Shown piece after piece: positions 1 through 18,297 of a DNA stretch of 18,297 nt. Position 1 is the first letter of the stretch, and the number at the start of each line of letters is the position of its first letter. Position numbers and translations under genes: made by a program. The notes beneath the pieces are model-generated. The model saw only the letters and a list, made by a program, of their open reading frames with translations. It was not told where the DNA came from and ran no database searches. Source of the DNA: Candidatus Heimdallarchaeota archaeon B3_Heim (GTDB lineage Archaea; Asgardarchaeota; Heimdallarchaeia; Hodarchaeales; Hodarchaeaceae); NCBI GenBank assembly GCA_003144275.1, contig NJBF01000053.1:1-18297 (forward strand), written 5' to 3'.

Positions 1-1322
1 CCTCCACAACATCGCGCGTGAGATCTATTGAACGTCATTTCTGTTAATTGAAGATCTGGTATTGCTTCCAAGATTTCACGAGGTGTATTATAAATACCAC
101 AGTGTCTTCCAAGAGAACATGGATCGTGGTATGTTATTTTTGCATTTAGAGGATTCAATCTCAATTCCTTAGTTTCTATCTTGTTTTTAATATATTGCGT
201 TGAGTGGAGAACTTCACACGGAATATTGAGATTGAAAATCTCTGGAAAAAGTTTCGTGAAGGTGTAAAAACATCCTGCACAAGGTGTAATTACCTTTTCA
301 ACCCCTGTTTTTTCAATTTTTTGAATAATTTCCTTCGCAATTATTTTTGCTTCATTCCACAGACCTGATGAAAATAAAACATATCCACAACATCCCTCAT
401 CTTCCCCTAGCATTGTAAAATTAGCTTGAACCTCTTTTAAAATGGTATAAAATGCTAAGGCGGTTTTAGGAGTACGATTTGATACCATACATCCAACCCA
501 ATAGAGAATATCTGGATTTTCGGAGAAATTCTTGTTAGTAATGTTGTTTAGCCAAGTAAAGCGTTTTTCACTTGGAGTTGCAGCTGGATCTCCAGTTCTT
601 GAAATATTGAAAGCAGTTGTCTGAAATATGTCAGGTCCTAATTTTTTTTCAGCAATTATATTTCTTACGTGAAAAATTGCTTTATGAAAATCTGATTGCT
701 TAGAGCTTTCACTAAAACAGTTCCCACACTCACTACAGGTGTATAGAATATCAATAAGCTTTTTTGAGGTTTCTAAATCCCCCTTCATTAATCCTCTGAT
801 CAAAAGCATTCTCCCCTTGGCTGACCATGTTTCAATTCCGTTACGAGAACGAGTTATTGTACAATATCTTCCACTAACATTATTTTGTAAGCACTTAGTT
901 AAGTTACTCTCTGAGATCAATATTTGTACTGCTAACGTAATGTTGTTTTGGACACTATGGGTATAATTCTGAATCTTATGTTTAAGCAGTGTCTTTCTTT
1001 TTCTTGGTTTTTCTGATCCGCTGCTGATTTCAGGTATTTTTGTATTATCTAGCAAAATTGATATTTTTGAAGGATCTCTCAATAAGAATGAATCTGATGT
1101 ATTTTTTCTATATATCGTGATATAATTTCTTCTCCCCCATTCTAATAATTTTGTAGAAGCAGTGAATTGATCATCCCTTACTATAATGTCAAACATTGGA
1201 TGAACTGGTTTTGTATAAATGTTTTCAAATGAATAAACATAGCGATCTTCAATATCAGTTAATACTTGAACCTCTGTGAATAATTGGCTCAATTCCTTAA
1301 CGAGCTCGCTTATAGATCTCAT
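1..1322 (-). CDS. HdrD/GlcF-like (Fe-S)-binding oxidoreductase with CCG domains; runs off the left edge (partial, 440 codons visible)
   Basis: Not in the ORF track because no stop lies in the window. Manual translation from ATG at 1322 is open to base 1: MRSISELVKELSQLF...ETWSAKGRMLLIRGLMKG...YTCSECGNC...LYWVGC...EGCCG...TPCAGC...TYHDPCSLGR...RCCGG. This is the ferredoxin-like domain plus two-CCG-domain layout of HdrD/GlcF proteins. Confidence 0.9.
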   Translation of the reverse strand, partial: MRSISELVKELSQLFTEVQVLTDIEDRYVYSFENIYTKPVHPMFDIIVRDDQFTASTKLLEWGRRNYITIYRKNTSDSFLLRDPSKISILLDNTKIPEISSGSEKPRKRKTLLKHKIQNYTHSVQNNITLAVQILISESNLTKCLQNNVSGRYCTITRSRNGIETWSAKGRMLLIRGLMKGDLETSKKLIDILYTCSECGNCFSESSKQSDFHKAIFHVRNIIAEKKLGPDIFQTTAFNISRTGDPAATPSEKRFTWLNNITNKNFSENPDILYWVGCMVSNRTPKTALAFYTILKEVQANFTMLGEDEGCCGYVLFSSGLWNEAKIIAKEIIQKIEKTGVEKVITPCAGCFYTFTKLFPEIFNLNIPCEVLHSTQYIKNKIETKELRLNPLNAKITYHDPCSLGRHCGIYNTPREILEAIPDLQLTEMTFNRSHARCCG

Positions 1323-1603: not shown

Positions 1604-2368
1604 TTGAGTGATGAATTAATTTTAGTCGAAAAAAAAGACTTTATTGGGAAAATTACCTTTAACAACGGCCCATTAAATATTTTGAATATTGAAATGATGG
1701 AACAGATCAATAAGACACTTGATAAGTTCCTAGAAGAAAATTCTCTCAAAGTGATTGTGTTTGATCACCTTGGAAAAGCATTCTCTGCAGGAGTCGATAT
1801 TGGGGAACACATGGGGGATTCTGTTAAAAAAATGTTAGAAGTATTCCATGGTATGTTTAAAAGGTTAAATCATATGAAAATCCCTACAGTCGCTTGTGTA
1901 AAGGGAGCTGCATATGGTGGGGGATGTGAGGTAGCTGCTTTCTGTGATATTGTATTAGCTTCAGAGAAAGCGAAATTTGGTAATCCAGAAATAAAAGTAG
2001 GAGTCTTTCCTCCTGTCTCAGCAGTCATATTTCCTTCTATACTTGGAGAGAAAAAAGCATTTGAACTTATATTACAAGGAGAGATTATCAGAGCGGAAGA
2101 AGCACACAGAATAGGCCTAGTCAATCAAGTATTCCCCTTAGAATCTTATGAACAAGATGTATCAGAATTTCTTGAAAGATTTAACAAATTAAGTACAATT
2201 GTGTTACAATATTCTAAAAAAGCTGTTAAAATAGGAATATCTGACTTTGAGACCAAATTAGACGAAGTAGAAGCTCTTTATCTCAATGAACTTATGGCAA
2301 CAACTGATGCGAATGAGGGGTTACAAGCTTTTATTGAGAAACGTCCACCTCAATGGCAGAATCGATAA
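1604..2368 (+). CDS. dch: Cyclohexa-1,5-diene-1-carbonyl-CoA hydratase (Dch/BamR-like, crotonase family), 254 aa
   Basis: Crotonase motifs AFSAGVDIGEH, GGGCE and GNPEIKVGVFPP with both catalytic Glu. The C-terminus EALYLNELMATTDANEGLQAFIEKRPPQWQNR resembles Dch/BamR. Directly upstream of had, with oah in the same cluster. Confidence 0.85.
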   Translation: MSDELILVEKKDFIGKITFNNGPLNILNIEMMEQINKTLDKFLEENSLKVIVFDHLGKAFSAGVDIGEHMGDSVKKMLEVFHGMFKRLNHMKIPTVACVKGAAYGGGCEVAAFCDIVLASEKAKFGNPEIKVGVFPPVSAVIFPSILGEKKAFELILQGEIIRAEEAHRIGLVNQVFPLESYEQDVSEFLERFNKLSTIVLQYSKKAVKIGISDFETKLDEVEALYLNELMATTDANEGLQAFIEKRPPQWQNR

Positions 2369-2435: not shown

Positions 2436-3482
2436 ATGAGAGCTGCTGTTTTTGAAAAAATAAGAGAACCATTAAAAATTGTGAATGATTATCTCTCTCC
2501 TACTATTGATGGGAGAAATGGACAAGTACTAGTGGATATCACAGCCTGTGGTGTTTGTCATACCGATTTAGGATTTCTTGATCATGGAGTACCTACAGGT
2601 AAATCTCCACCATTAATTTTAGGACACGAAATGGCTGGACGAGTACATGAAATCAGTGAGGATGTTACAAATTTTAAGAGAGGAGACCATGTCCTTATTC
2701 CCGCAGTCATTTCTTGTGGTACCTGTTTTCAATGTAGGACAGGACGGGAAAACATATGTTCAAATCAAGTTTTTTTCGGAAGTAATGTTGATGGAGGGTT
2801 TGCAGAACAGATTATGGTTCCAGCGAAAGACATATTCCATCTTCCAGTAGAAATACCTTTGGAAGAAGGATGTATTATAGCTGATGCAGTGTCTACTCCA
2901 TATCATGCTGTTAAAAATCGAGGTCAAGTCAGACCAGGTGACTGGGCTGTTGTTTTTGGGTGTGGTGGGATAGGACTCAACGTGGTCCAGAATATTAAAG
3001 CTGCAGGTGGATTACCTATCGCAGTTGACATTATCTCAGAAAAACTAGATATTGCTAAAAAACTTGGAGCTGTTAAAACACTTTCAGCAAAGGAATTAGA
3101 TGACCGTGGTATAGTAGGAGCAATCCGAAAAGCTACAGGTGGAGGTGCAGACATTGCTTTTGAAGCAATTGGAAATCCTACGACATTTAAGCAAGCTTTT
3201 AATAGCTTACGAACTGGTGGAAGATTAGTTGCTGTAGGTTATTCTCCAAAACGATGGGATGGCTTTGATATTGGTCGTGTGATGTTTCGTGAAATGGAAA
3301 TAATGGGAAGTTTGGGGTGTCGCACCGTAGATTACCCACGTATCATAGAATTAGTTAAAAATGGTACACTTGTGGTTAAACCACTTGTAACAGGAAAATA
3401 TCCCCTTTCCGAAATAAATGAAGGATTTGATGTCATGCGACGAGGTGAAGGAGTACGAACTGTTGTTTTATGTCAAGAATAA
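2436..3482 (+). CDS. had: 6-hydroxycyclohex-1-ene-1-carbonyl-CoA dehydrogenase (Had/BamQ-like Zn-dependent MDR), 348 aa
   Basis: ACGVCHTD and LILGHE (catalytic Zn), CGTCFQCRTGRENIC (structural Zn), IADAVSTPYHAVKNR, and GCGGIG...VDI (NAD-type). DHGVPT...PPLILGHE and PAKDIFHLPVEIPLEEG are typical of Had/BamQ. Adjacent to dch. Confidence 0.88.
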   Translation: MRAAVFEKIREPLKIVNDYLSPTIDGRNGQVLVDITACGVCHTDLGFLDHGVPTGKSPPLILGHEMAGRVHEISEDVTNFKRGDHVLIPAVISCGTCFQCRTGRENICSNQVFFGSNVDGGFAEQIMVPAKDIFHLPVEIPLEEGCIIADAVSTPYHAVKNRGQVRPGDWAVVFGCGGIGLNVVQNIKAAGGLPIAVDIISEKLDIAKKLGAVKTLSAKELDDRGIVGAIRKATGGGADIAFEAIGNPTTFKQAFNSLRTGGRLVAVGYSPKRWDGFDIGRVMFREMEIMGSLGCRTVDYPRIIELVKNGTLVVKPLVTGKYPLSEINEGFDVMRRGEGVRTVVLCQE

Positions 3483-3577: not shown

Positions 3578-4720
3578 ATGAAAATCGGTATTGTTGGTAT
3601 TGGTCATAGCAAGTTTGGTAGACGTGATGATGTAACAGTTCAAGAACTTGCATTTGAGCCATTTGTTGAAGCGCTTATTGACTCAGGACTTCAGCGAGAA
3701 GAGATTGACGCTACAATTATTGGGGCATCTCCCGTTTATATGACCCAAAGAAGTATCGCAGGCCCCGTCACAGAATACTTGGGATTGAATCCGCAACCTG
3801 TTTGGTTGACTGAAGCTGCTTGTAGTAGTTCCGCATCAGCTCTAAGAACCGCGTATGCATTAATTAAATCTAAAATGCATAACACTGTCTTAGTTCTTGG
3901 TGTTCAAAAGATGTTAGAAAATCCAACATCAGAAATTCTAAAGATTATGGGACGAACAGGAGATGTTCAATGGGAAGCTCCCTATGGAACAACCTTTGCT
4001 AATTATTATGCAATGTATGCGAATGCTCATATGACGAAATATGGGACATTGTCGGAACAGCTTGCTGAAGTAGCGGTAAAGAATCACTATTATGGGTCGA
4101 AGAATCGTAAAGCCATGTTCCAAAAAGAAATTACGGTTGAAAAAGTTCTTGAATCACGGATTATTTCCTCACCTTTACATCTTTATGATTGCTGTGCGAA
4201 TGCGGATGGTTCAGCAGCTCTGATAGTATCGAATGAGGAAATATCCAAAAAAATATCTGATACTCCTATCTGGGTTGAAGGTTTAGGTGCAGCAACAGCT
4301 CCGTTTTCCCTTCTCACTCGACCCGAACTGAGTACCTTAACCAGTGCTGTTGAGGCCTCACAGGCCGCGTATACGCAGGCAAAGATTGATCCAACAAATA
4401 TTGATGTAGCAGAAGTTCATGATTGTTTCACTATAGCAGAAATCATGGCTTACGAAGATTTAGGTTTTACAGAGCGAGGCAAAGGTGGAGAGTTTGTGGA
4501 GAATGCTTACATTGGTGGTAAAGTGCCAATCAATGTCGATGGAGGCCTTAAAGCAAAAGGACATCCAGTGGGAGCCACAGGGTGTTCTCAAGTCGTTGGA
4601 ATTGTCCAACAACTTCGTGGAGAAGCAGGACAATGCCAAGTGGATGGAGCAGAGAAGGGTTTAACCCACAATGTTGGTGGTCATGGCCAGTATTGTCTCG
4701 TCCATGTCTTTTCGAGGTGA
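3578..4720 (+). CDS. SCP2/archaeal-type thiolase (acetyl-CoA acetyltransferase), 380 aa
   Basis: EAACSSS (nucleophile Cys), EVHDCFT (HDCF loop, 4418-4429), GGLKAKGHPVGATG and THNVGG. Immediately followed by a DUF35 domain, the usual partner of this thiolase class. Confidence 0.9.
   Translation: MKIGIVGIGHSKFGRRDDVTVQELAFEPFVEALIDSGLQREEIDATIIGASPVYMTQRSIAGPVTEYLGLNPQPVWLTEAACSSSASALRTAYALIKSKMHNTVLVLGVQKMLENPTSEILKIMGRTGDVQWEAPYGTTFANYYAMYANAHMTKYGTLSEQLAEVAVKNHYYGSKNRKAMFQKEITVEKVLESRIISSPLHLYDCCANADGSAALIVSNEEISKKISDTPIWVEGLGAATAPFSLLTRPELSTLTSAVEASQAAYTQAKIDPTNIDVAEVHDCFTIAEIMAYEDLGFTERGKGGEFVENAYIGGKVPINVDGGLKAKGHPVGATGCSQVVGIVQQLRGEAGQCQVDGAEKGLTHNVGGHGQYCLVHVFSR
4714..4720 (+). promoter_or_regulatory. 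Shine-Dalgarno-like GAGGTGA overlapping the thiolase stop codon
   Basis: GAGGTGA includes the TGA stop at 4718-4720 and lies 4 nt before ATG 4725. It supports 4725 as the true start and translational coupling. Confidence 0.6.
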
Positions 4721-4724
4721 AGTG

Positions 4725-5936
4725 ATGAAGCAATTTGGATATCGCGATTATATCTCCCAATCCAAGGTAGGAGTACAGCTTTTAAAGTCTTTAAAAGAGG
4801 GGAAATTAGAGGGAACTCAATGTACAAAATGTAATATTCCTTATTATCCCCCTAGAGCCTATTGCCGTGAATGTTTATCCGATGGAAATATAATAGGTCT
4901 TATTTTTTCAGGTAAAGGAACGATACTATCTTTTTCAGAAGTTCAGGTTCCTCCCGCAGGTTTTGAACGTTTTGCTCCATATACAGTTTGTATCGTGGAA
5001 TTAGATGAAGGAGGCCGACTTGTTGGTTGGATTGATCCAGGATCCCAATCTCTGAAAATTGGAGATAAGGTCCAAGTAAAGCCCGAAGTGATTGAGGGAG
5101 ATCGAGTAGTTTATAAAATTACAAGAGGAACATCTCCAGATGTCGATGTAAAGGCTGAAAAAGTAGCTCAAAATCTTGTAACAGGGAGTAACAAACTTCA
5201 GGGTAAGGTTGCAATAATAACTGGAGCAGGAAAGGGGATTGGGCGTGAAATTGCTTTAAAATATGCACGAGAAGGAGCTATGGTTATTGTAGCAGCTAGA
5301 ACGCTCAGTGATATCGAAACGGTGGCAAAGGAAATCAAACAATCTGGAGGAGAAGCAACTCCTATCATATGTGATGTTGGAAATGTAGAAAGTGTTCAAC
5401 AATTAATTATGAAAACTCTAGAAAAATATGAAACAATTGACATCCTTGTGAACAACGCAGGGATTTCTAAGAGTGCCCTAATTAGTAAAATGACTGATGA
5501 TCTTTGGAATTCAGTTATTAATGTGAATTTGAAGGGTACTTTCAATTGTATTCGTGCTGTTATTCCTCATTTCTCAACAAAACGACCTCTTGGAGGGAAA
5601 ATTATTAACTTCACGTCAACCGCGGCAAAATACGGTAACGTGGGTCAAAGTGCTTATAGTGCATCAAAATGGGGTGTTATCGCCCTTTCTAAATCTGCTG
5701 CACGCGAACTAGCCACTTACAAAGTGAATGTAAACTGTATCATGCCTGGTTATATAGAAACAGCCATGACAGCAGACACTCCATCTGTTTATAAAGAGCA
5801 AACCATAGCTCAAATTCCTCAAATGCGTATTGGTTACCCCGAAGACGTAGCGAAGGTTGCTGTATTTCTAGCCTCTTCCGATTCGGATTATATGACGGGT
5901 TCAATCCTTCAGGTCGACGGTGGATTGAGGATGTAA
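4725..5936 (+). CDS. Fusion of DUF35 (Zn-ribbon plus OB-fold) and a FabG-like short-chain dehydrogenase/3-ketoacyl-CoA reductase, 403 aa
   Basis: N-terminal CTKC...YYPPRAYCREC Zn ribbon and OB fold (GKGTILSFS, PYTVCIVELDEGGRL, LKIGDKV), a linker of about 20 aa, then an SDR with TGAGKGIG, NNAG, S...YSASK and PGYIET, all in one frame. Start moved from 4671 (inside the thiolase gene) to ATG 4725. Confidence 0.88.
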   Translation: MKQFGYRDYISQSKVGVQLLKSLKEGKLEGTQCTKCNIPYYPPRAYCRECLSDGNIIGLIFSGKGTILSFSEVQVPPAGFERFAPYTVCIVELDEGGRLVGWIDPGSQSLKIGDKVQVKPEVIEGDRVVYKITRGTSPDVDVKAEKVAQNLVTGSNKLQGKVAIITGAGKGIGREIALKYAREGAMVIVAARTLSDIETVAKEIKQSGGEATPIICDVGNVESVQQLIMKTLEKYETIDILVNNAGISKSALISKMTDDLWNSVINVNLKGTFNCIRAVIPHFSTKRPLGGKIINFTSTAAKYGNVGQSAYSASKWGVIALSKSAARELATYKVNVNCIMPGYIETAMTADTPSVYKEQTIAQIPQMRIGYPEDVAKVAVFLASSDSDYMTGSILQVDGGLRM

Positions 5937-5979: not shown

Positions 5980-7179
5980 CTATTCATCAGGAGTATATGG
6001 AGGAAGTTCATATCTTAACTTAGCAGATTTTCGGTATCCTAGAATGTATGATCCTTGGATTAATTTTTGAATTTCATTAGTTCCTTCAAGAATCGTATTA
6101 GCACGTGCATTTCTCCAGTATCTTTCAACTGGAAAGTCTCCACTATAACCCATTGCACCATGGATTTGGATTGCACGATTCGCAGCATCAGAAGCATGAT
6201 TTGTAGCTTGCCATTTTGCCATAGCTGTTTCTCTAGTATTTCTAATTCCTTGGTTTTTTAACCACGCGGCTTTATAGACTAATAACTGAGATTGATCATA
6301 GCCTGCTTGCATATAGGCGATATGTTCTTGAATTAATTGTAATTTTCCAATCTCTTGACCAAATGCTTTGCGTTCATGAGAATATTTCACAGCTGCTTCA
6401 ATACTAGCTCTTATAACACCACAAGCACCAGCTGCAACTGTAAACCTACCACTATCTAACGCTGTCATGGCTATTTTGAATCCTTCTTGCTCCTTCCCAA
6501 GGAGATTTTCAGTAGGGATTCTAACATCCTGCAGTATAATTTCACCAGTATCACCTGTCCTAACCCCTAATTTATCATGAAACGAACTTGTAGAAAGACC
6601 TTGCGATTCTTTTTCTACAATGAAAGCCGAAATGTCTTTATAGCCCTTTTCCTTCCCTAATCGTGCAAAAATTAAGAAATGATCTGCTACATCAACTAAA
6701 CTAATCCATTGTTTTGCTCCATTAAGAACAAACTCATCTCCTTCTCGTACTGCTTTCGTTTGAAGATTAGCAACATCTGATCCACATCCTGGCTCCGTAA
6801 GACCGTAAGCTCCAATTTTAGTTCCTTTTCCTTGAGGTAGAAGAAATTTTTCTTTTTGTTCTTTTGTTCCCCATTGGTACATTGTTAAACTCGACAAAGC
6901 CGTATGGACTGATAATATTACACGTAACGAGGTGTCTACTCGTTCCAATTCTTCACATGCAAGAGCTAAGGCCACATAATCAAGGCCTGCGCCTCCCCAC
7001 TTCTCTGGAATGCATACTCCAAGTATCCCCAATTTTCCCATTAATGGAAGCACTTTTTTGTATACAGATTTTTGTCGTTTATCATAATCGCTAATAATTG
7101 GAGAGACTTCACGCTCTGCAAAGTCTCGAACACTATCACGTAGCATAATATGTTCTTCTGAAAGTGAAAAATCGATCAT
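5980..7179 (-). CDS. Acyl-CoA dehydrogenase, glutaryl-CoA dehydrogenase-like, 399 aa
   Basis: YGLTEPGCGSD, NGAKQWIS, ERKAFGQEIG, QIHGAMGY and ILEGTNEIQ (catalytic Glu365). ELERVDTSLRVILSVH keeps the Arg that binds the distal carboxylate in glutaryl-CoA dehydrogenases. Start set at ATG 7179 (MIDFSL) rather than TTG 7194. Substrate is inferred. Confidence 0.8.
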   Translation of the reverse strand: MIDFSLSEEHIMLRDSVRDFAEREVSPIISDYDKRQKSVYKKVLPLMGKLGILGVCIPEKWGGAGLDYVALALACEELERVDTSLRVILSVHTALSSLTMYQWGTKEQKEKFLLPQGKGTKIGAYGLTEPGCGSDVANLQTKAVREGDEFVLNGAKQWISLVDVADHFLIFARLGKEKGYKDISAFIVEKESQGLSTSSFHDKLGVRTGDTGEIILQDVRIPTENLLGKEQEGFKIAMTALDSGRFTVAAGACGVIRASIEAAVKYSHERKAFGQEIGKLQLIQEHIAYMQAGYDQSQLLVYKAAWLKNQGIRNTRETAMAKWQATNHASDAANRAIQIHGAMGYSGDFPVERYWRNARANTILEGTNEIQKLIQGSYILGYRKSAKLRYELPPYTPDE

Positions 7180-7333
7180 ACAGTAACCATCCAAGTTTTT
7201 TATTTGATATTTTGAGCTGTTATACGGAATTTTCGTTTCTATATAGAGTAGTTGAGTTGGATTGTTGTAGTAATATAATTTTTATGATGAACTAAATAAC
7301 GTGTATACTATCACGATCAGAATCAATAGAAGG

Positions 7334-8452
7334 ATGAATGCTTTGAAAGATCATAATCTTTGGAAAGAGGAATATTTTGGAACGGATCCTCCGAATATAA
7401 CGTATGAGCTAAAGCCACTGGTCAATCCAAACGGTGATACGGTGGATAACCTATTTTCAGCATGGATTATACTCAATAATCCTCAACAACTGAACTCTTA
7501 TACAACAAAAATGGTGAAAGGAGTGATAGCAGGATTTTCTCGCGCATCAATGGATCGTAATGTAGTAACAGTTGTTTTTACGGGTGCAGGTGACCGTGCA
7601 TTCTGTACAGGAGGTAATACAAAGGAATACGCTGAATATTATTCTGGGAAGCCCAACGAATACGGACTTTATATGGATTTGTTTAATGCGATGGTAGATG
7701 CTATCCTGAACTGTAAAAAACCTGTCTTATGTCGTACCAATGGAATACGAGTTGCAGGAGGGCAGGAAATCGGTATGGCTGCTGATTTAACTATTTCAGC
7801 TGATACAGCTATATATGGACAAGCTGGCCCTCGTCATGGATCTGCTCCGGACGGTGGTTCGACTGATTTTCTTCCATGGATGCTTTCTATTGAAGACGCG
7901 ATGTGGAACTGCATTTCATGTGAGTTATGGAGTGCATATAAAGTGAAGCAATTAGGAATGATAACTGAAGTCGTTCCTGTGCTAAAAAGAGATGATAAAT
8001 TCATCCGAAATCCCACCATTATAACTGACAGATATATTCACGATGGAGAAATCGTTTATGGAGAATTCCTTTCTGGAAAGGAGTATAAAGATGCGAGAGA
8101 GGTTTTGAAAAGCTGTGAAACTGATTTTTCACTTCTTGATAAGGCAATTGATGATATAATATGGAAGTTCGCGAACCTATTTCCTGGATGTTTAATGAAA
8201 TCCATCGATGGAATCCGAATGAAGAAAAAATTCTTTTGGGATCAAACAAAACTTGCCAATCGTCATTGGTTATCTGCTAATATGTCTACTGAAGCATTAT
8301 TAGGTTTTCGTGCATTTAATGAGAGGAAGTTAACTGGAAAGGACACTATTGACTTCATCCAATATCGTCAGCTAATCGCTAACGCACACCCCTTCGATCA
8401 AAATCTTATTGATACAGTTTTACCTAAACCATTGAAAAATGAGGACTCTTAA
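7334..8452 (+). CDS. oah: 6-oxocyclohex-1-ene-1-carbonyl-CoA hydrolase (Oah/BamA, ring-opening), 372 aa
   Basis: Diagnostic stretches NSYTTKMVKG, AFCTGGNTKEYAEYY, GGQEIGMAAD, GQAGPRHGSAPDGGSTDFLP and GFRAFNE match Oah/BamA. Start set at ATG 7334 (MNALKDHNL) rather than GTG 7301. Confidence 0.95.
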   Translation: MNALKDHNLWKEEYFGTDPPNITYELKPLVNPNGDTVDNLFSAWIILNNPQQLNSYTTKMVKGVIAGFSRASMDRNVVTVVFTGAGDRAFCTGGNTKEYAEYYSGKPNEYGLYMDLFNAMVDAILNCKKPVLCRTNGIRVAGGQEIGMAADLTISADTAIYGQAGPRHGSAPDGGSTDFLPWMLSIEDAMWNCISCELWSAYKVKQLGMITEVVPVLKRDDKFIRNPTIITDRYIHDGEIVYGEFLSGKEYKDAREVLKSCETDFSLLDKAIDDIIWKFANLFPGCLMKSIDGIRMKKKFFWDQTKLANRHWLSANMSTEALLGFRAFNERKLTGKDTIDFIQYRQLIANAHPFDQNLIDTVLPKPLKNEDS

Positions 8453-9660
8453 TGCAATTTTCAAACACTTTCATTCCCTATGGATGCTATTGGAGCTCTC
8501 CGTTTGTACGTTGGCAGGGGAGCTTTGCTAACCAAAACTCTATACAACTCGCTGCGGAAGTTGCTACTCTAGCTCTAAATAAACGAAAGATACAACCTGA
8601 AATCTTTAATTCAATATATTTAGGGATTACTATTCCTCAAGTACATAGTTTTTATGGTCAAACTTGGTTATCTGGTCTTCTTGGAGCTCCCAATATTACA
8701 GGGCCGATGATTGCACAAGCATGTGCCACTTCTACACGAGTAATCGCCAATGCAGCATCTGAAATCGAAACACGAAGTAACCCCAATCATACCATACTAG
8801 CCATTACTTGTGATCGAACAAGCAATGGTCCTCATATCCTCTATCCTGCTCCTTTAGCACCTGGTGGAAAACCGAATACTGAAAATTGGGTCTGGGATAA
8901 TTTTAGCTTCGATCCATATGCAAAAAATCCAATGATTCAAACTGCAGAGAATGTATCGAGAGATGCAGGAATAACACGAGAAGCCCAAGAGGAAGCTACA
9001 TTACTCCGTTACAAACAATATGACCAAGCATTAAAGAATGACGCAGAATTTCTCAGAAAATTCATGATCTCACCCATTGAGGTAAAGTCTGGAAGAAAAA
9101 TTATTGCTACAGTTGAAAAAGATGAAGGAATTTACCCTACTTCAAGAGAAGGATTAGCTAAACTAAAACCAGTGTCAAAAGATGGTTCAGTAACTTTTGG
9201 GACACAAACTCATCCAGCAGATGGAAATTGTGGATTGATTCTTACAACTCGGGAAAAAGCCAATGAAATTTCTCTAAATTCAGATTATGAGATTCAGATC
9301 CTCTCTTTTGGTCAGGCTCGTAGCAAGAAAGGATTTATGCCCATGGCTCCAGTACCTGCTTCCCAAAAAGCACTTGAATCAGCTAAACTCTCAGTTGGTG
9401 ATATTACTGCTACTAAGTTACATAATCCTTTTGCTGTTAATGATGTCTATTTTAGTGAGGAAATGGGAATTTCACTTACCTCAATAAATAACTATGGTTC
9501 ATCACTTGTATGGGGGCACCCTCAAGCCCCAACTGGGATGCGTTTACTTATTGAACTAATCGAAGAACTAGTGATAAAGAAAGGGGGTCACGGTCTTTTT
9601 ACAGGCTGTTCTGCCGGTGATTCTGCAGCAGCAGTCGTCATCAAAGTGAATTCGGTTTAA
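8452..9660 (+). CDS. Thiolase of the family found in anaerobic aromatic-degradation clusters (candidate 3-oxopimeloyl-CoA thiolase), 402 aa
   Basis: IPYGCYWSSPFVRWQG N-terminus, AQACATS (Cys), DRTSNGPH, HNPF loop (9421-9432), WGHPQAPTG (His) and GCSAGD (second Cys). The ATG overlaps the oah stop (TAATG at 8450-8454). Confidence 0.85.
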   Translation: MQFSNTFIPYGCYWSSPFVRWQGSFANQNSIQLAAEVATLALNKRKIQPEIFNSIYLGITIPQVHSFYGQTWLSGLLGAPNITGPMIAQACATSTRVIANAASEIETRSNPNHTILAITCDRTSNGPHILYPAPLAPGGKPNTENWVWDNFSFDPYAKNPMIQTAENVSRDAGITREAQEEATLLRYKQYDQALKNDAEFLRKFMISPIEVKSGRKIIATVEKDEGIYPTSREGLAKLKPVSKDGSVTFGTQTHPADGNCGLILTTREKANEISLNSDYEIQILSFGQARSKKGFMPMAPVPASQKALESAKLSVGDITATKLHNPFAVNDVYFSEEMGISLTSINNYGSSLVWGHPQAPTGMRLLIELIEELVIKKGGHGLFTGCSAGDSAAAVVIKVNSV

Positions 9661-9718: not shown

Positions 9719-10609
9719 TTAGAAAGACCGAGGCGTTGGAGGATTTGTGGAATAATCGTAAAATCCCATTCCTGTTTTCCTTCCAAGATGATTTGCACGC
9801 ACCATTTTTCGAAGTAATGTTGGAACACGGTACTTTGAATCTTGAAACTCTGTAACGAAATAATCAGCTATGAAAAGTGTTGTATCTAGACCTACAAAAT
9901 CTAACAGAGTAAATGGACCCATAGGATGATTTAAACCTAAAGTTATTGCTTTATCCATATCTTCAACCGTTGTTACTCCTTCTTGTAATGTAAATATTGC
10001 CTCAAGGAAGAATGGTAGCAGGAGACGATTAACTGCGAACCCAGGTGCTTCATTAACGAGTACAGTCTCTTTTCCCAATTTCTGGGAAAGTTCATCAATG
10101 AACTTATATGTTTCATCTGAAGTTTCATATCCTTTAATTATTTCAACCAATCGCATCACAGGTACAGGATTGAAAAAATGCATACCAATGAACTTATCTG
10201 GACGTTTTGTTGCTGCAGCCATGTCAGTAATAGATATTGATGATGTATTAGAAGCAAAAACCACGTTTGGATCACAGATTTCTTCCAATTCTGTATAAAC
10301 TTTACGTTTTAAGTCCCTATTTTCAATTATTGCCTCAATAACCACATCAGCTCCTTCTGTGGCTTCTTTCAAATCGGTAGTTCCTTTTATTCTACCTAGA
10401 ATTTCGTTCATTTGATCTTGAGTCATTTTTCCTTTTTTAACCCCACGTGACAAATTTTTATTAATCATAGACAGACCTTTTTCTATGAAATGGTCTTCAA
10501 TATCCCTCATGGCAACTTGATACCCAGCTTGAGCACAGACTTGAGCTATACCATTACCCATTAATCCTGCTCCTATAACACATATTTTTTTCACATTATC
10601 AATCTTCAT
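9719..10609 (-). CDS. hbd: 3-hydroxybutyryl-CoA / 3-hydroxyacyl-CoA dehydrogenase (NAD-dependent), 296 aa
   Basis: VIGAGLMGNGIAQ...RDIE (NAD-type Asp), FASNTSSIS, GMHFFNPVPVMRLVEII, PGFAVNRLL, HPMGPFTLLDFVGLD and LGRKTGMGFY. Start set at ATG 10609 (MKIDNVKK); the 20-aa extension in the ORF track is AT-rich upstream sequence. Confidence 0.88.
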   Translation of the reverse strand: MKIDNVKKICVIGAGLMGNGIAQVCAQAGYQVAMRDIEDHFIEKGLSMINKNLSRGVKKGKMTQDQMNEILGRIKGTTDLKEATEGADVVIEAIIENRDLKRKVYTELEEICDPNVVFASNTSSISITDMAAATKRPDKFIGMHFFNPVPVMRLVEIIKGYETSDETYKFIDELSQKLGKETVLVNEAPGFAVNRLLLPFFLEAIFTLQEGVTTVEDMDKAITLGLNHPMGPFTLLDFVGLDTTLFIADYFVTEFQDSKYRVPTLLRKMVRANHLGRKTGMGFYDYSTNPPTPRSF

Positions 10610-10799
10610 TTGATGAACACCGTTAAATATAATGATGGTAGAAAGTAATAAATAATTATAGAAGAGCATTTTTAGAATTTTTGTTTATTTCAAAATCGAA
10701 AGGTTGTATGAAGTGTTATAAATTCAAACTAGCAAGAAATACAAAATTATTTTACTCTAAACCTAATGAAATATCAAGAAGAACCAAGATACACATAAA

Positions 10800-12389
10800 T
10801 TACAGTTTTTGAGAAATTAAATTATTGTATCGCTCACGTAGGATTCTGTGAATGATTTTACCAGAGCCTGTTCTTGGTACATCTTCGTAATCAATAAAAA
10901 AGACCTTTTTTGGAACTTTGAATCTAGCTAAATGCTCTTTACTATGATTCATTATATCCTCCGCTAAATCTTCGGTAGCTTCAAAATTTGGTGCCAGAAC
11001 ACAAATAACGGTAACAGACTCTCCCCATTTATAATCCTGTAATCCTATCACTGCACATTCAAGTACAGCAGGCATTGCATTAATAGTTTTTTGTACTTCA
11101 GATGGAAAAACATGTTCTCCACCCGTAATTATCATATTCGCCTTTCTATCAACGAGATATAAATATCCATCCTCATCTCTTTTAGCCATATCTCCTGCAC
11201 TGAAAAAACCATCTTCCATACTCTCTAATGTTTTTTCTGGTAACTTATGGTATTCTGTGTGTTGCATAGGACCACGAGAAAATAATTCACCGATTTCTCC
11301 ATCAAGTATTAGCTTTCGTGAATTGGGATCCAAAATTTTGATATTATCTGTTCCAATACATTCCAAACCTATTGAACCAGCTTTTTTGAATTGATCTTCT
11401 GGTCTCAAAATTGTTACGAGGCCTGCTTCGGTAGAACCATATGCTTCAAAAAGCCTTACATCCTTAAATAACGCCATAACTTCATATTTCATCTTTTTTG
11501 TTGCAGGAGCTGAGGATGTCAAAAGTGATCGGATGGAACTTAGATCATATTTCTTCAGGATTTCATCTGGAAGACACAGGATTAAATTATAATGGGTGGG
11601 GATCATACTGGTAAACGTGATTTTTTCCTGTTCAAAAATTTGTAATACATCTTCAGGGTTAAATTGATATTCAAGATGAACATAGACACTTGCACCGATA
11701 TATGTGAAAACAAAAGCGTAAAACGTAGAATTAACATGGGACAAAGGCATTAAGACTAATCCGTAATCATCTGGTGTGAAGGAGAATTCTGCTGCATTGA
11801 TTAGAAAAAAGGATATATAGGAACGATGGGAGCGAACAACACCCTTAGGTTTGCCAGTTGTGCCAGAGGTATATAGAAGAATCCATGTATCTTCGGAGTC
11901 TACCTGAATTAAAGGATATTCATCTTCACCTTCTTCTACAATATCCTTGTAATAACTCCAGTTTTCTAAAACTGGAATTTCCCCAATCAAAACATGTTGA
12001 AGATTATCTAGTCCGAATTCAATGACCAAATCCCAACTCTCAATTGTTAGGTCATAATATCTATCTTGAACCATGACCATTTTTACTTCAGCATTTCGCA
12101 CGATCCAATAAAGATCAGTTGGTAGAAGTCGGAAATTCAGGGGAACAATAATTAGACCTGCTTTTGCAGCTGCGCCGTAAATTTCCATAAATTCAACACA
12201 GTTATTTAGTAGAACCGCTATTTTATCTCCTTTCTTCAAACCTCTTTTGAGTAAACCGTTCGCTAACATATTAGTTCTTATATCATAATCTCTAAAGGTA
12301 AGTGAGCGGTTTTTATCCTTAACTGCTAATTTATTGGGATATTTAAGAGCATTAACCCGAAGAATTTCTCCCAGATGTAACCAATTCAT
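10800..12389 (-). CDS. AMP-forming acyl-CoA synthetase/ligase, substrate unknown, 529 aa
   Basis: LYTSGTTGKPKG P-loop, YGSTEAG, GDMA, DRKANMIITGGEHVFPSEV and FKVPKKV...PRTGSGKI. It lacks the WLYSSGSTG and FFAYGLGN signatures of benzoate-CoA ligases as I recall them. Confidence 0.88.
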   Translation of the reverse strand: MNWLHLGEILRVNALKYPNKLAVKDKNRSLTFRDYDIRTNMLANGLLKRGLKKGDKIAVLLNNCVEFMEIYGAAAKAGLIIVPLNFRLLPTDLYWIVRNAEVKMVMVQDRYYDLTIESWDLVIEFGLDNLQHVLIGEIPVLENWSYYKDIVEEGEDEYPLIQVDSEDTWILLYTSGTTGKPKGVVRSHRSYISFFLINAAEFSFTPDDYGLVLMPLSHVNSTFYAFVFTYIGASVYVHLEYQFNPEDVLQIFEQEKITFTSMIPTHYNLILCLPDEILKKYDLSSIRSLLTSSAPATKKMKYEVMALFKDVRLFEAYGSTEAGLVTILRPEDQFKKAGSIGLECIGTDNIKILDPNSRKLILDGEIGELFSRGPMQHTEYHKLPEKTLESMEDGFFSAGDMAKRDEDGYLYLVDRKANMIITGGEHVFPSEVQKTINAMPAVLECAVIGLQDYKWGESVTVICVLAPNFEATEDLAEDIMNHSKEHLARFKVPKKVFFIDYEDVPRTGSGKIIHRILRERYNNLISQKL

Positions 12390-13598: not shown

Positions 13599-16500
13599 TT
13601 AGATGTTCTTTCGTCTACGTACTGTAATTACCAGTACGATCAAGAAAAATAGGCTTACATAAAAAACAAGAAATGGTGTGTTAACAAAAGTAGATGACGG
13701 TTGGGTAGTAATAGTTGATGAGGTACTTGAAGTAAGTGCTGTCACTGTCATACGTTTAAAGACACCTGAACCAGCACTGCCAAAATAGAGAAAATTTCCG
13801 TCTGCTGAACACACCATCATATTCGCGACGTTGTTGCCGTTAGTACCAGCCACCAAGTCAGTTAGCCCCTCGTTCCAGGATAGCCAGCTAGCACCACCGT
13901 TACAACTAATAAAGACTCCTTCACCCTGTGTAGCCAGATACAATATGTCAGGATCTCGCTTGTCAACAATGATCTCGTAGAATTCCTGATCGATATTCAA
14001 CCCAGTAGTAATTTCAAACCAATGAGCCCCACCATCAGTGCTTTTCATCACTGTCCCTCGGAATCCCTCACACCCACTTCCCTCGTTCTCCCCGTTCTTG
14101 GAACAGGCATACATCACATTTGGATTCTCAGGATCGAAATCTATGGAAAAGACCCATTGTTCACTTGGCCAACCTCGATTCCACGTTTCCCAATGACCAC
14201 CGCCATCTGTTGCGAGGTTCACCCCATTGTAAGTGCCAGCATAGATAATATCTGGGTTCTCAGGATGGAATACCAGACAAAAGACGCCATCATTGGCCCA
14301 ACCGATGTTACTTTCCTGCCAATTTTGACCCCCATCTACGCTTTTGTAGATACCAGATGGGAATGTACCAAAGTAGATCACGTTGGGGTTTTTGGGGTGA
14401 ATAAGCAGTGAAGTATATTGATAAAGTGGCCTGTTGTCCCAAATAGGCCAGAGACTCCCAAACTGGCCAAAAGCATTCATCTGTACCCATCTATCATCTG
14501 AAGTACTATAGTAATATAGTTCATATCCTAGGCTGCCACACAATAACATTCCGTCAGCAGACCATGCAAGGCTTTTAACTTGAGACGTGTGTAGTCCAGT
14601 ATTGAAAGAACTCCATGTTTTGCCTCTATCACTCGTAACAAACACTCCTTCTTCGCTGCTGACATATATCGTATCCGAATCAGTAGGATCAACCACAACA
14701 GCAGTTACTAGTCTCCCACACATCTCGTTAGCGTCCCCAAATAGAGGTATCTGACTATCAGCGCCATCATTCGATGCATAAACTCCTTTACCATAAACAG
14801 TAAAGTAGAGTCTGTCTGAATTCGTAGGATCAATTGCAAAGTTATAATATCCCTGCCTGATAGGGTCATCCACCTCAAAACTTGGTAGAAAGAAATTCTT
14901 GTCTTTCCATGTTTTTCCACCGTCCACTGTCTTGAACATGCCTCCAGGATAAGAACTTGCATAAACTACATCAGAATTTGTGGGATCAACGACTATCTGG
15001 ATGTTGTAGATTTCAGGTTTAGGTCCATCAGTAGAAGTCCAACTTACTGTATAATCTACATTGACATCACCAACGTAGACTCCCCCACCGCGGCTTCCAG
15101 CATATATTTTATTCCCGCTGATAGATAATGAGCCTATGCTTCTGAAATCAAGTCCATTATTCTGGATTGTCCAAATATCACCGCCATCTGTTGTTAGATA
15201 AACACCGTTCGCTCCTCCAGCATAAATTACGTTTGAATTCTCAGGATGTATAACTAATGCCCTACAAGGACTATTTATAACACCTCGATTTATATTTTCC
15301 CAGCTTGATCCATTATCATCACTCTTATATACTCCATGTGTTCCTATATCTTCAGGTGAGACTGGAGGGAAAAAGTTTGGATCTAAGAGCTCTTCAGGAC
15401 ATCTTCTTCCCATAATAGTAGCAGCATAAAGAATATCTGTATTAGAAGAGTCTATTTCAATGTCAAAGGTACCAACTATTGGCATAGAGTCCAAATTCAG
15501 CCAACTTACTCCTCCATTAGTTGTCTTATAAACATTCTCGCCATGTAATGAAACGTAGATCATTTGTGAATCTGTGGGATCAACGGCAATGTCAATGATG
15601 GCTCTGGGAAGGCTGCCTGTTATATCCGTTGATACTTCTCCCGTAATTCTGAACAAACTACCAAGAATAGCATTATGTTTGAAAGCTGATACATAGACAG
15701 TATTAGGGTTGCTTGGATCAAGCTTTATCTTAAACAATCTGGAGTAACCAGGACCCGCATCAAAAGCAATTTCCCAAGTCTGTCCACCATTTACCGATCT
15801 ATACAAGATAGGTTGCGCCCTACCCGCAGCATAAACTATGTCTGGATTCACAGGATGGGTAGTGACACTTGCAATCGATAAAGTGGAGATGTTCTCTAAT
15901 TCTATCCAAGATTCACCGCTATTTACAGTCTTAAACAATCCTGCCCCCCAAGGGGCGGCATAGAGTATTTCTTCGTCCGTTGGATCAATAGCTAGTTGAT
16001 TCTGGGAGTGTATTGTGCTGAAGAAGAAATGTTCGTTGAGGTTGATCCAGCTACTCCCCGCGTTGTAACTAACCCTGATATTACCTCCATATCCCGTGTC
16101 ACCTACGTAAACTGTATTAGGGTTGGTGGGGTCGATGGTCACTGAAGTAATCCCATGGGAACCGGATACATTAAGAGATGTCACCCATGAATCACCTCCA
16201 TCGGCCGTCTTACGGACTATCGCAAATTTTTGGAAAGGCTTAGGGAGGTAGCCGCTATAAACGATGTCGGAATTTGTAGGATGGACAGCTATACTATAGG
16301 TATAATCCACTTCAGATTGGTGTAGGAAACGCCAACCTTTCCCACCATTTGTGCTCTTGAAAATTCCAAAACCGTTCTTTAGCGCGTAAATTGTGTTTGA
16401 ATCTGATGATGCTGGTGCCAAAGTATACACCGAACCAAAACGGAAACCCTCACCATAGGAGTCGATAACTTTGTCCCATGAAACACCCCCGTTCGTTGAT

Positions 16501-17810
16501 TTGAAGACCTCCCCCACATCTGCTACCTCCCAGACAGTTTCTGGGTCATGGGGATCGATTACCAACTCATCAGCCCAAGGGTGAGTGATTCCGCCCTCGT
16601 TGATATTAACCCAGGAGTTTCCATAGTTGGTTGTCTTGAAAGTCCCTTCTCCATTGACTGATGCCGCATATATTGTACCACTCCCAGCTACAGCCAATAG
16701 ATTGATACCTACATTGAGCAGACCTTGGTTGATAGATGTCCAACTTTCTCCGCCGTCGGAGCTTTTGACGATACCATGGGCTCGACGCGGCAGGTAGAGA
16801 ACATTACTATCGCTTGGGTCAACCGCAATGTCATACATATCACCATTCCTTCCTGGTGGTCCAATCCAAGCCCAATTCTGCCCGTTATCACTTGATTTAT
16901 AGACATTACCTCCTGAGCCAACATAGAGCGTATCATCATTCGAAATTCTACCTATTATATTAATCATAGCGTCAGTGGAGGGAAGATGAAGTCGTGTCCA
17001 AGTTTTACCGCCATCTTGTGTTTTGAGCAGATAGATGTCATTTTTTTGATCGAATACTTCATTATGAATGTTAACTAGGCCGACGTAGATGATATTTGTA
17101 TCTTCAGGATCGACAAAGATGGTATGGATATCTGTCTCCTGTTGCTGACCGATTTTCTTCTCCTCCCAAGAAACGCCTCTATTGGTGGTGTGGTAAAGAC
17201 GACCTGTACCAACCCAAAACTCGTCATTAGCGCCGATAGCGATGTCAGCGATACCATCACCTGGCAAATTGCCTGTAATATCTGTCCAATTCTCGCCACC
17301 ATTAGCACTATAATAAGCCTTGCCAATCCCCGTACCGGCAATCAGAACCAAAGGGTTTTCCAGGCTTATCGTCACACAACTAAAGCTGTGGTCTTGGTTA
17401 AGGATTCGCCAACTCTCTCCACCATTGGTGCTCTTGTATAGCTTGCCAATATGGGCGTAAACAGTCTGCGGATCATCGGATGAAATGAGTATGTTACTGA
17501 CTTGGTTAGATGGTGACATGATCTGTTCCAGCATTGTCCATGTGGTGCCTTCATCAGTTGTTTTGTAAACGCCACCACCTGTCCCTCCAGCGTAAAGAAT
17601 GTCTGGGTTGGTTGGATCGATCTCAATGGTATTGATTATACCGCCGTAAGGACCATTTGTCTGAACCCAAGGGTTGGTATTCTTATCATCGAAGTTGTTA
17701 CTAAGAATAACAGGATAACTTGTTATGTATACAGGTGTACATGCTATTACAAAGAGAAAGATAAGCAAAGATGAAAGGAAAGTTCCTAAGATTGTTGTGT
17801 GTTTGATCAT
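13599..17810 (-). CDS. Large secreted, membrane-anchored Asp-box (BNR) beta-propeller protein (VPS10/sortilin-, YCF48- or GH74-like fold), 1403 aa
   Basis: N-terminal hydrophobic signal. About 23 repeats of [KR]-[ST]-x-[DN]-G-G-x-[ST]-W, mostly preceded by (I/V)-D-P-x-[ND]-x-x-x-x-Y. The C-terminus has a Ser/Thr linker, a TM helix and RRRK. Confidence 0.9.
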   Translation of the reverse strand: MIKHTTILGTFLSSLLIFLFVIACTPVYITSYPVILSNNFDDKNTNPWVQTNGPYGGIINTIEIDPTNPDILYAGGTGGGVYKTTDEGTTWTMLEQIMSPSNQVSNILISSDDPQTVYAHIGKLYKSTNGGESWRILNQDHSFSCVTISLENPLVLIAGTGIGKAYYSANGGENWTDITGNLPGDGIADIAIGANDEFWVGTGRLYHTTNRGVSWEEKKIGQQQETDIHTIFVDPEDTNIIYVGLVNIHNEVFDQKNDIYLLKTQDGGKTWTRLHLPSTDAMINIIGRISNDDTLYVGSGGNVYKSSDNGQNWAWIGPPGRNGDMYDIAVDPSDSNVLYLPRRAHGIVKSSDGGESWTSINQGLLNVGINLLAVAGSGTIYAASVNGEGTFKTTNYGNSWVNINEGGITHPWADELVIDPHDPETVWEVADVGEVFKSTNGGVSWDKVIDSYGEGFRFGSVYTLAPASSDSNTIYALKNGFGIFKSTNGGKGWRFLHQSEVDYTYSIAVHPTNSDIVYSGYLPKPFQKFAIVRKTADGGDSWVTSLNVSGSHGITSVTIDPTNPNTVYVGDTGYGGNIRVSYNAGSSWINLNEHFFFSTIHSQNQLAIDPTDEEILYAAPWGAGLFKTVNSGESWIELENISTLSIASVTTHPVNPDIVYAAGRAQPILYRSVNGGQTWEIAFDAGPGYSRLFKIKLDPSNPNTVYVSAFKHNAILGSLFRITGEVSTDITGSLPRAIIDIAVDPTDSQMIYVSLHGENVYKTTNGGVSWLNLDSMPIVGTFDIEIDSSNTDILYAATIMGRRCPEELLDPNFFPPVSPEDIGTHGVYKSDDNGSSWENINRGVINSPCRALVIHPENSNVIYAGGANGVYLTTDGGDIWTIQNNGLDFRSIGSLSISGNKIYAGSRGGGVYVGDVNVDYTVSWTSTDGPKPEIYNIQIVVDPTNSDVVYASSYPGGMFKTVDGGKTWKDKNFFLPSFEVDDPIRQGYYNFAIDPTNSDRLYFTVYGKGVYASNDGADSQIPLFGDANEMCGRLVTAVVVDPTDSDTIYVSSEEGVFVTSDRGKTWSSFNTGLHTSQVKSLAWSADGMLLCGSLGYELYYYSTSDDRWVQMNAFGQFGSLWPIWDNRPLYQYTSLLIHPKNPNVIYFGTFPSGIYKSVDGGQNWQESNIGWANDGVFCLVFHPENPDIIYAGTYNGVNLATDGGGHWETWNRGWPSEQWVFSIDFDPENPNVMYACSKNGENEGSGCEGFRGTVMKSTDGGAHWFEITTGLNIDQEFYEIIVDKRDPDILYLATQGEGVFISCNGGASWLSWNEGLTDLVAGTNGNNVANMMVCSADGNFLYFGSAGSGVFKRMTVTALTSSTSSTITTQPSSTFVNTPFLVFYVSLFFLIVLVITVRRRKNI

Positions 17811-17955: not shown

Positions 17956-18297
17956 CACTGGCCGTTTTAAGTCTAATGGATTAGTTCATCACATTTTTAT
18001 CACCTGACCTTTAAAATAACCTTTCCGCTATCAAGTAAGAGTTAGGCCACGGTTCCAAGTCTGAATAACGTAAATTCTCTAGTAATGATGTTAAATGATC
18101 TTGCCAACGAGTAAAACCGAGAAGGAGAAGATAATAAAAGAGGATGATTTGTAATAAAGTCACTAACAAACAATGGGTGACAAAACTCATCCAAGATTTC
18201 CCCAATGGACGTTTAATTGTGGTGTGTTGTTTAATCCATTGAAACAAGGTTTCGATCTCCCAGCGTTCCTTTTGGAGTTGAAGCACCGTTAAGGGAG
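17956..18297 (-). mobile_element. Downstream end of an IS4-family insertion sequence (continues beyond the window)
   Basis: Contains the transposase C-terminus. The candidate terminal inverted repeat starts CACTGGCCGTTTTAAG at 17956, resembling CACT-starting IS4-family ends as I recall them. The boundary is tentative because the partner repeat is outside the window. Confidence 0.55.
18011..18297 (-). CDS. IS4-family DDE transposase, C-terminal part (5' partial)
   Basis: The frame stays open upstream of GTG 18286 to the window edge (..PLTVLQLQKERWEIETLFQWIKQHTTIKRPLG). R-(3)-E-(6)-K spacing matches the IS4 YREK signature, and RWxIExxFxWIKQH is typical of the family. Confidence 0.85.
   Translation of the reverse strand, partial: PLTVLQLQKERWEIETLFQWIKQHTTIKRPLGKSWMSFVTHCLLVTLLQIILFYYLLLLGFTRWQDHLTSLLENLRYSDLEPWPNSYLIAERLF

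Follow-up and report, generated by a model that had tools for sequence, protein, structure and literature searches.

The 18,297-nucleotide stretch of DNA analyzed here (the window) is a whole contig, C52 (NJBF01000053.1), of the 3.95-Mb genome (36% G+C, 94% complete) of Candidatus Heimdallarchaeota archaeon B3_Heim, an Asgard archaeon of the Hodarchaeales. It carries the gene for an acyl-CoA dehydrogenase (ACAD) that is most likely the glutaryl-CoA dehydrogenase (GCDH) of an anaerobic benzoate-breakdown cluster, acting in the lower benzoyl-CoA pathway. Because of a conserved arginine, its phylogeny, and its gene context, we consider that the window ACAD is probably a dicarboxylyl-CoA dehydrogenase, most likely acting on glutaryl-CoA. 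The tyrosine that precedes the catalytic glutamate in decarboxylating GCDHs is replaced by leucine in this protein, and we tentatively propose, with somewhat less than even confidence, that it releases glutaconyl-CoA.

The likely start of the gene is the ATG at 7179, since the sequence MIDFSL opens all close homologues. A script placed the codons of Arg86 (CGT, 6922-6924) and Val87 (GTA, 6919-6921) within SLRVILSVH and those of Leu364 (CTT, 6088-6090) and Glu365 (GAA, 6085-6087) within TILEGT; together with the translation, this confirmed the positions that an earlier note on this DNA had given for the two residue pairs (6919-6924 and 6085-6090). In equal-length, presumably gapless local alignments, Arg86 corresponds to position 94 of human GCDH (1SIR) and position 97 of the Burkholderia enzyme (3D6B) and falls on the Arg of ERVDSGLRSFVSVQ in the Thermus enzyme (2EBA), and Leu364 corresponds to position 366 (Val366) of the Desulfococcus multivorans enzyme (3MPI). 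From the end offsets of full-length alignments, Leu364-Glu365 corresponds to positions 369-370 of the human enzyme and 373-374 of the Burkholderia enzyme, which are the Tyr and the catalytic Glu (PMC3169403). That Tyr is hydrogen bonded to Arg94/Arg97 and contacts the carboxylate that is lost as CO2 (PMC3169403). Equivalence to the canonical GCDHs is thus based on alignment ranges and published numbering.

As stand-ins for the D. multivorans enzyme, we used equivalogs of its family, GDH_Des, that scored 660 to 802 bits against model NF045552 and came from genomes of Desulfobacteraceae, Syntrophobacterales, and Desulfarculaceae. One of these (802 bits to NF045552) matched 3MPI with 720 bits in a PDB search, and that search gave the 3MPI residues ...ALRVQLNM... 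and ...YYMVEGS.... BLASTP aligned the window ACAD with this equivalog at 39% identity with three gaps, pairing SLRVILSVH with SLRVQVNMQ and TILEGT with FMVEGS; the C-terminal LGYRK of the two proteins was also paired. In GDH_Des, the replacement of Tyr by Val is reported to carry mechanistic weight. Both sites of the window ACAD are equivalent to those of both GCDH types, and the patterns that the earlier note had given were right: Arg-Val and Val-Glu for D. multivorans can be read off 3MPI, and for decarboxylating enzymes Arg-Ser is found in Thermus 2EBA and Tyr-Glu in the human and Burkholderia enzymes (PMC3169403). The window ACAD therefore has the equivalent of Arg94 (Arg86) and lacks that of Tyr369, and at this position, the counterpart of Val366 of GDH_Des, it has Leu rather than Val.

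We aligned 121 members of the window ACAD family, sampled from the best 120 matches. The nearest database homologues came from Hodarchaeales and Heimdallarchaeia, followed by Bacillaceae and Chloroflexota at 57 to 59% identity. Arg86 was kept in every full-length sequence, followed by Val, Thr, Ile, or Ser; butyryl-CoA dehydrogenases (Bcd) and short-chain acyl-CoA dehydrogenases (SCAD) have no Arg in that column. The catalytic Glu was preceded by Tyr in 83 sequences and by Leu in the other 38, which are the closest Hodarchaeales sequences. Since Leu was found in all 38 sequences of this subclade and Tyr in all 83 other members, Leu364 is not due to chance or sequencing error. Arg-Val also occurs in 32 Tyr-type members, so only one of the two residue "markers" is informative: where the earlier note had both decarboxylation-promoting residues absent, the replacement of Tyr by Leu364 stands, and Arg-Val does not discriminate between the types.

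Maximum-likelihood trees, with an outgroup limited to 11 other ACADs (three of them Bcd-like), grouped the window ACAD family with the clade that holds GDH_Des (SH-like approximate likelihood ratio test support of 97% and 100%) and left the 11 other ACADs outside. The window ACAD itself was placed outside the GDH_Des clade, in a separate sister family. The Leu sequences came together in a single clade (100%) that lies within the Tyr-type sequences of Hodarchaeales, and just eight alignment columns set this clade apart from all Tyr-type members, three of them being Asn361, Thr362, and Leu364. On this sequence evidence, the ancestral state of the family is Arg with Tyr-Glu. Because the Leu clade is monophyletic, with Leu invariant and so few separating columns, Tyr-to-Leu likewise reads as a single derived event, fixed in a Hodarchaeales subclade and independent of the Tyr-to-Val change of GDH_Des.

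The surroundings of the gene fit a GCDH of the lower benzoyl-CoA pathway, in line with the GCDH identity that the earlier note had given it. The window ACAD and Oah are divergent neighbors, and the gene order Dch-like, Had-like, thiolase, SDR, Oah, thiolase, Hbd, and ligase (Table 1) is also found in at least three related loci. Elsewhere in the genome, contig C46 (G000:C46:4008-8174, L135) encodes BzdN, BzdO, and BzdQ above the curated cutoffs together with a fourth activase-type subunit, a set predicted to be a complete Bzd-type class I ATP-dependent benzoyl-CoA reductase (BzdNOPQ). Downstream of the Bzd genes lies a ferredoxin-regenerating module consisting of an 859-amino-acid NAD(P)/ferredoxin oxidoreductase and a 2-oxoacid:ferredoxin oxidoreductase. 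To our knowledge, the standard pathway from benzoyl-CoA to acetyl-CoA needs an ACAD at glutaryl-CoA oxidation only, and it is mainly for this reason that we take glutaryl-CoA to be the substrate. Benzoyl-CoA pathway predictions for Asgard archaea, with GcdH and GcdA listed, have already been published (PMC8163825).

Judged from the family matches, Dch, Had, and Oah would open the ring to give 3-hydroxypimeloyl-CoA, and one dehydrogenase-thiolase pair would convert this to glutaryl-CoA and acetyl-CoA. The FAD-dependent window ACAD would then oxidize glutaryl-CoA, with Glu365 as the catalytic base and Arg86 holding the distal carboxylate. The electrons would probably pass to the single EtfBA pair of the genome, which is encoded on contig C30 beside another ACAD; there are no etf genes in the window. 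A 740-amino-acid membrane protein (G000:C30:10611-12830) is encoded just after EtfBA. In the active site, the Tyr that in decarboxylating enzymes is hydrogen bonded to the Arg and to the leaving carboxylate was exchanged once for Leu, in parallel with the Tyr-to-Val change of GDH_Des, and decarboxylation would be weakened or lost, with glutaconyl-CoA as the predicted product. We favor this product because the carboxylate-contacting Tyr is lost, because its loss is fixed together with two neighboring changes, and because of the kinship with GDH_Des. The further conversion of glutaconyl-CoA would then fall to a system other than the Na+-pumping Gcd complex.

Among 301 Asgard genomes, the family turned up in 54, all of the class Heimdallarchaeia. 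Oah was confined to the genus of the window, where it occurs in 14 of the 20 other genomes as well as in the window genome. Each matching genome of the genus carries one type, Leu or Tyr, and both types occur beside Oah. The additional open reading frames in the Tyr-type clusters are unrelated ones, encoding leucine-rich repeat, DUF4037, and WD40 proteins, a peptidase, and UbiD/AcnX of the mevalonate route. Gene context was uninformative beyond the genus, where the neighbors in four Heimdallarchaeia genomes that lack Oah are housekeeping genes.

Non-decarboxylating GCDHs and Gcd go with obligate anaerobes and decarboxylating GCDHs with facultative anaerobes (PMC5852087, PMC6129605). The earlier note had predicted a separate, possibly Na+-pumping decarboxylase. 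We found no OAD_beta/GcdB protein (PF03977) in the window genome or in 43 other Heimdallarchaeia genomes, using a search that does detect GcdB in control bacteria, and no GcdA-type carboxyltransferase in the 94%-complete window genome, and this prediction was not supported. The single PF01039 carboxyltransferase of the genome is of the MCC-beta type, with 767 bits to human MCCC2 versus 174 bits to GcdA. Its operon (G000:C63:13541-18354; L098 6542-11355) also encodes a biotin carboxylase, a biotin carboxyl carrier protein, and a crotonase resembling methylglutaconyl-CoA hydratase. The operon has the look of a module for leucine catabolism; in principle, crotonyl- or glutaconyl-CoA could be among its substrates. 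We rejected the idea of a decarboxylase that tracks the Leu type, since OAD_beta was found in none of these genomes and the MCC-beta carboxyltransferase is present whichever type a genome has (20 of 21 genomes of the genus, Leu-type and Tyr-type alike). The energy-limited lifestyle proposed in the earlier note was not supported either: the genome has an ATP-dependent class I reductase, which goes with the decarboxylating enzymes of facultative anaerobes (PMC5852087).

How glutaconyl-CoA might be metabolized without a biotin-dependent Na+-pumping decarboxylase is a matter of two candidate routes, and we regard this part of the proposal as doubtful. In one, the crotonase, dehydrogenase, and thiolase enzymes of the cluster would hydrate and oxidize glutaconyl-CoA to 3-oxoglutaryl-CoA, a beta-keto acid that would lose CO2 to give acetoacetyl-CoA. 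In the other, the methylcrotonyl-CoA carboxylase (MCC)/methylglutaconyl-CoA hydratase module on contig C63 would take over.

Several further observations, besides the missing GcdB, the MCC-beta identity of the carboxyltransferase, and its presence in Leu-type and Tyr-type genomes alike, weigh against a glutaryl-CoA dehydrogenase that releases glutaconyl-CoA. We know of no characterized member of the window ACAD family. The window ACAD scored 352 bits against NF045552 (GlutCoADH_Des), below the curated equivalog cutoff of 470, and no ACAD of the genome exceeded that cutoff, the best being a paralogue on contig C19 with 371 bits. Among solved structures, it matched butyryl-CoA dehydrogenases (334 bits) better than 3MPI (266 bits) or human GCDH (176 bits), decarboxylating GCDH structures as a whole scoring 176 to 224 bits. 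Ser90 is shared with decarboxylating enzymes, whereas GDH_Des has Asn at this position, and the human equivalent of Ser90 presumably has a role in the enzyme. Tyr-type orthologues adjoin Oah in sister species, in the same place as the Leu type, which may mean that the exchange leaves the pathway unaltered. Finally, a Leu-Glu-Gly motif is also present in isobutyryl-CoA dehydrogenase, where it is tied to substrate shape (PMC8360864). The "non-decarboxylating" type assigned by the earlier note is partly supported: the Tyr is lost and the family is sister to GDH_Des, but the protein falls below the NF045552 cutoff, lies outside the GDH_Des clade, and retains Ser90. Many close homologues bear the IMG/JGI label "glutaryl-CoA dehydrogenase (non-decarboxylating)", which is an automatic name with no test behind it.

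A first alternative is a GCDH that still decarboxylates, forming crotonyl-CoA and CO2 in one active site with Leu364 either tolerated or serving kinetic tuning. The lack of glutaconyl-CoA decarboxylase genes in the window genome and its relatives, a cluster that otherwise encodes all the steps to acetyl-CoA and includes no separate decarboxylase, the Tyr-type orthologues in the same position beside Oah, the retention of Arg86 together with Ser90, and the pairing of class I ATP-dependent reductases with decarboxylating enzymes (PMC5852087) are all consistent with it. We nevertheless consider it somewhat unlikely, as the carboxylate-contacting Tyr is gone, in a change fixed throughout the subclade with two adjacent residues, and the nearest characterized clade is non-decarboxylating. 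A different role for Leu364, that of making room for another carboxylated or bulkier acyl-CoA (pimeloyl-CoA, as the earlier note had also suggested, adipyl-CoA, or methyl-substituted glutaryl-CoA from methylbenzoates) with no bearing on decarboxylation, is suggested by other ACADs in which Leu, Val, Ile, or Gly in place of the Tyr goes with alpha-substituted or bulky substrates (PMC8360864). The cluster includes an acyl-CoA ligase of unknown specificity, the methylglutaconyl-CoA hydratase-like gene beside MCC could accept (methyl)glutaconyl-CoA, and family members are found in Heimdallarchaeia that lack Oah, too. This seems quite improbable to us: the Oah product, 3-hydroxypimeloyl-CoA, requires no ACAD before glutaryl-CoA, Arg86 aligns ungapped with the Arg that binds the C5 carboxylate in both GCDH types, and for pimeloyl-CoA in particular the PimC and PimD models (TIGR03204 and TIGR03203) gave 97 and 94 bits against cutoffs of 624 and 653. 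Cyclohexanecarboxyl-CoA dehydrogenase was rejected as well, with 218 and 277 bits to TIGR03207 and NF043006 against cutoffs of 575 and 650.

Overall similarity points in yet another direction, toward a butyryl-CoA dehydrogenase of the usual short-chain kind, or a crotonyl-CoA reductase, that would work with the thiolase, Hbd, and crotonase nearby in the manner of the butyrate operons of clostridia. The best structure matches are the Bcd proteins of Acidaminococcus and Clostridioides and rat SCAD (334 to 309 bits), and the top NCBIfam match is the acryloyl-CoA reductase AcrC, at 369 bits far under its cutoff of 640; no GCDH model was among the NCBIfam matches. Such a function is very unlikely, however, given that Bcd and SCAD have Gly or Thr in the column of the invariant Arg and carry Tyr-Glu, that no etfBA genes adjoin the gene, the pair on C30 lying by another ACAD, and that the trees leave Bcd-like ACADs out of the clade uniting the family with GDH_Des. 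We retain a glutaryl-CoA dehydrogenase that may release glutaconyl-CoA as the preferred explanation.

Table 1. Residues of the window ACAD and genes of the window, with positions in the window and strand
Feature	Position	Strand	Remarks
Putative glutaryl-CoA dehydrogenase (ACAD) gene	5980..7179	-	399 amino acids; intact open reading frame; Pfam Acyl-CoA_dh_N, _M, _1
Arg86-Val87	6919..6924	-	Arg equivalent to omega-carboxylate-binding Arg94 (human), Arg87 (3MPI)
Ser90	6910..6912	-	+4 from Arg86; as in decarboxylating-type LRSFVSVQ of 2EBA; Asn in GDH_Des
Asn361-Thr362-Ile363-Leu364-Glu365	6085..6099	-	Remodelled motif before catalytic Glu; Leu364 in place of the family's ancestral Tyr
C-terminal tail LGYRK...PLRxELPPY	5983..6042	-	Tail in whole family; LGYRK start also in GDH_Des (QLG[YIV]RKANR)
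Oah	7301..8452	+	TIGR03200, 567 bits, above cutoff of 464; adjacency to ACAD conserved in related genomes
Enoyl-CoA hydratase, Dch-like	1604..2368	+	TIGR03189, 185 bits, below cutoff of 292; ECH_1
Zn-dependent alcohol dehydrogenase, Had-like	2436..3482	+	TIGR03201, 219 bits, below cutoff of 339
SCP-x-type thiolase	3578..4720	+	NF004720, 468 bits, above cutoff of 420
DUF35 (Zn ribbon + OB fold)-SDR (short-chain dehydrogenase/reductase) fusion, 3-oxoacyl reductase/dehydrogenase	4671..5936	+	Pfam zf-ChsH2, OB_ChsH2_C, adh_short
Thiolase II (acetyl-CoA C-acyltransferase type)	8452..9660	+	TIGR01930, 186 bits, below cutoff of 240.55; Thiolase_N, Thiolase_C
3-Hydroxybutyryl-CoA dehydrogenase (Hbd)	9719..10669	-	NF004474, 416 bits, above cutoff of 408
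AMP-forming acyl-CoA ligase	10800..12389	-	NF004837, 412 bits, below cutoff of 476; AMP-binding
CCG-domain iron-sulfur oxidoreductase (HdrD/GlpC-like)	3..1322	-	Cut by contig end; Pfam CCG x2

The CCG-domain gene is kept at the edge of the cluster in loci L010, L012, and L017, and its product might serve the pathway as an electron outlet. The SCP-x thiolase and DUF35-SDR genes overlap by 50 bases. In Candidatus Hodarchaeum mangrovi (L012 8668-11125), the cluster has the same order, but the DUF35-SDR gene and Oah have no ACAD gene between them; a Leu-type homologue assigned to this organism (P0027, 76% identical) was present among the database matches. In a related Hodarchaeota genome (L011 1-1161), the gene directly upstream of Oah encodes an EtfA that carries a 2x[4Fe-4S] ferredoxin domain at its N terminus. 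The remainder of the window encodes a 1,403-amino-acid Sortilin/Vps10 and BNR-repeat protein (13599-17810) and, at the contig end, a DDE transposase fragment (18011-18286).

In the trees, which sampled the best 120 matches, family members from bacteria (Bacillaceae, Thermoactinomycetaceae, and Chloroflexota) make up a clade that lies within the Heimdallarchaeia sequences, which suggests a transfer between domains. The C19 paralogue (G000:C19:64469-65665; L099 9467-10666) is a second Leu-type ACAD copy, 82% identical and with the same motifs, that sits beside a Ras/Roc-family small GTPase among unrelated genes. Two bacterial ACADs encoded near Oah (L087 5606-6832 and L079 2370-3557) have Val-Glu and an ALGYRK C terminus, as GDH_Des does, but lack the Arg (SWGLPFNLQ); both group with the GDH_Des clade in the trees. 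An ACAD from an uncultured Syntrophaceae (L093 1477-2679) scored 407 bits against the GDH_Des model, below the cutoff; its two sites read Arg-Ala and Gly-Glu, a further variant of these positions, its C-terminal tail is long, and a CoA-transferase-like gene adjoins it.

The distinction between decarboxylating and non-decarboxylating GCDHs is a textbook marker of energy conservation by anaerobes growing on aromatic compounds. The papers searched gave no prior account of a Tyr/Leu dimorphism that follows lineage in a family sister to GDH_Des, or of the absent decarboxylase partner. Within a single Asgard genus, this cluster contains naturally occurring orthologues of both the Tyr and the Leu type, a clean pair for asking whether one residue determines what becomes of the carboxyl group. 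Should the Leu form indeed release glutaconyl-CoA, these archaea, which lack the known decarboxylase, would need an as yet undescribed route for it. If it does not, the residue rule used in metagenome annotation would need qualifying, as would the automatic "non-decarboxylating" name given to the whole family, Tyr-type members included.

Compared with known enzymes, the window ACAD is most like GDH_Des (D. multivorans, 3MPI) in having Arg-Val at the carboxylate site, an aliphatic residue for the Tyr before the catalytic Glu, the C-terminal LGYRK, a likely role in the lower benzoyl-CoA pathway, and a sister position in the tree. It differs from GDH_Des in its identity of just 39% and its score of 352 bits against a cutoff of 470, in having Leu rather than Val and Ser rather than Asn at +4, in a further 12-residue C-terminal tail, in a Leu that arose independently from a Tyr-type ancestor, and in having no GcdABCD partner in its genome. 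With the decarboxylating GCDHs (human 1SIQ/1SIR, Burkholderia 3D6B, and Thermus 2EBA; EC 1.3.8.6), it shares the ERVDxxLRxxxSV motif, the carboxylate-binding Arg, the Ser at +4, and the position of the catalytic Glu, and their Tyr-Glu is the ancestral state of its family; it departs from them in having Leu for Tyr and in scores of 176 to 224 bits, below those of Bcd or 3MPI. Butyryl-CoA dehydrogenases and SCAD (4L1F, 5OL2, and 1JQI) resemble it in fold and length and are the most similar of the solved structures (334 to 309 bits), but they have no Arg at position 86 and no C-terminal tail, carry the Tyr-Glu motif, and lie outside the clade that joins the window ACAD family with GDH_Des.

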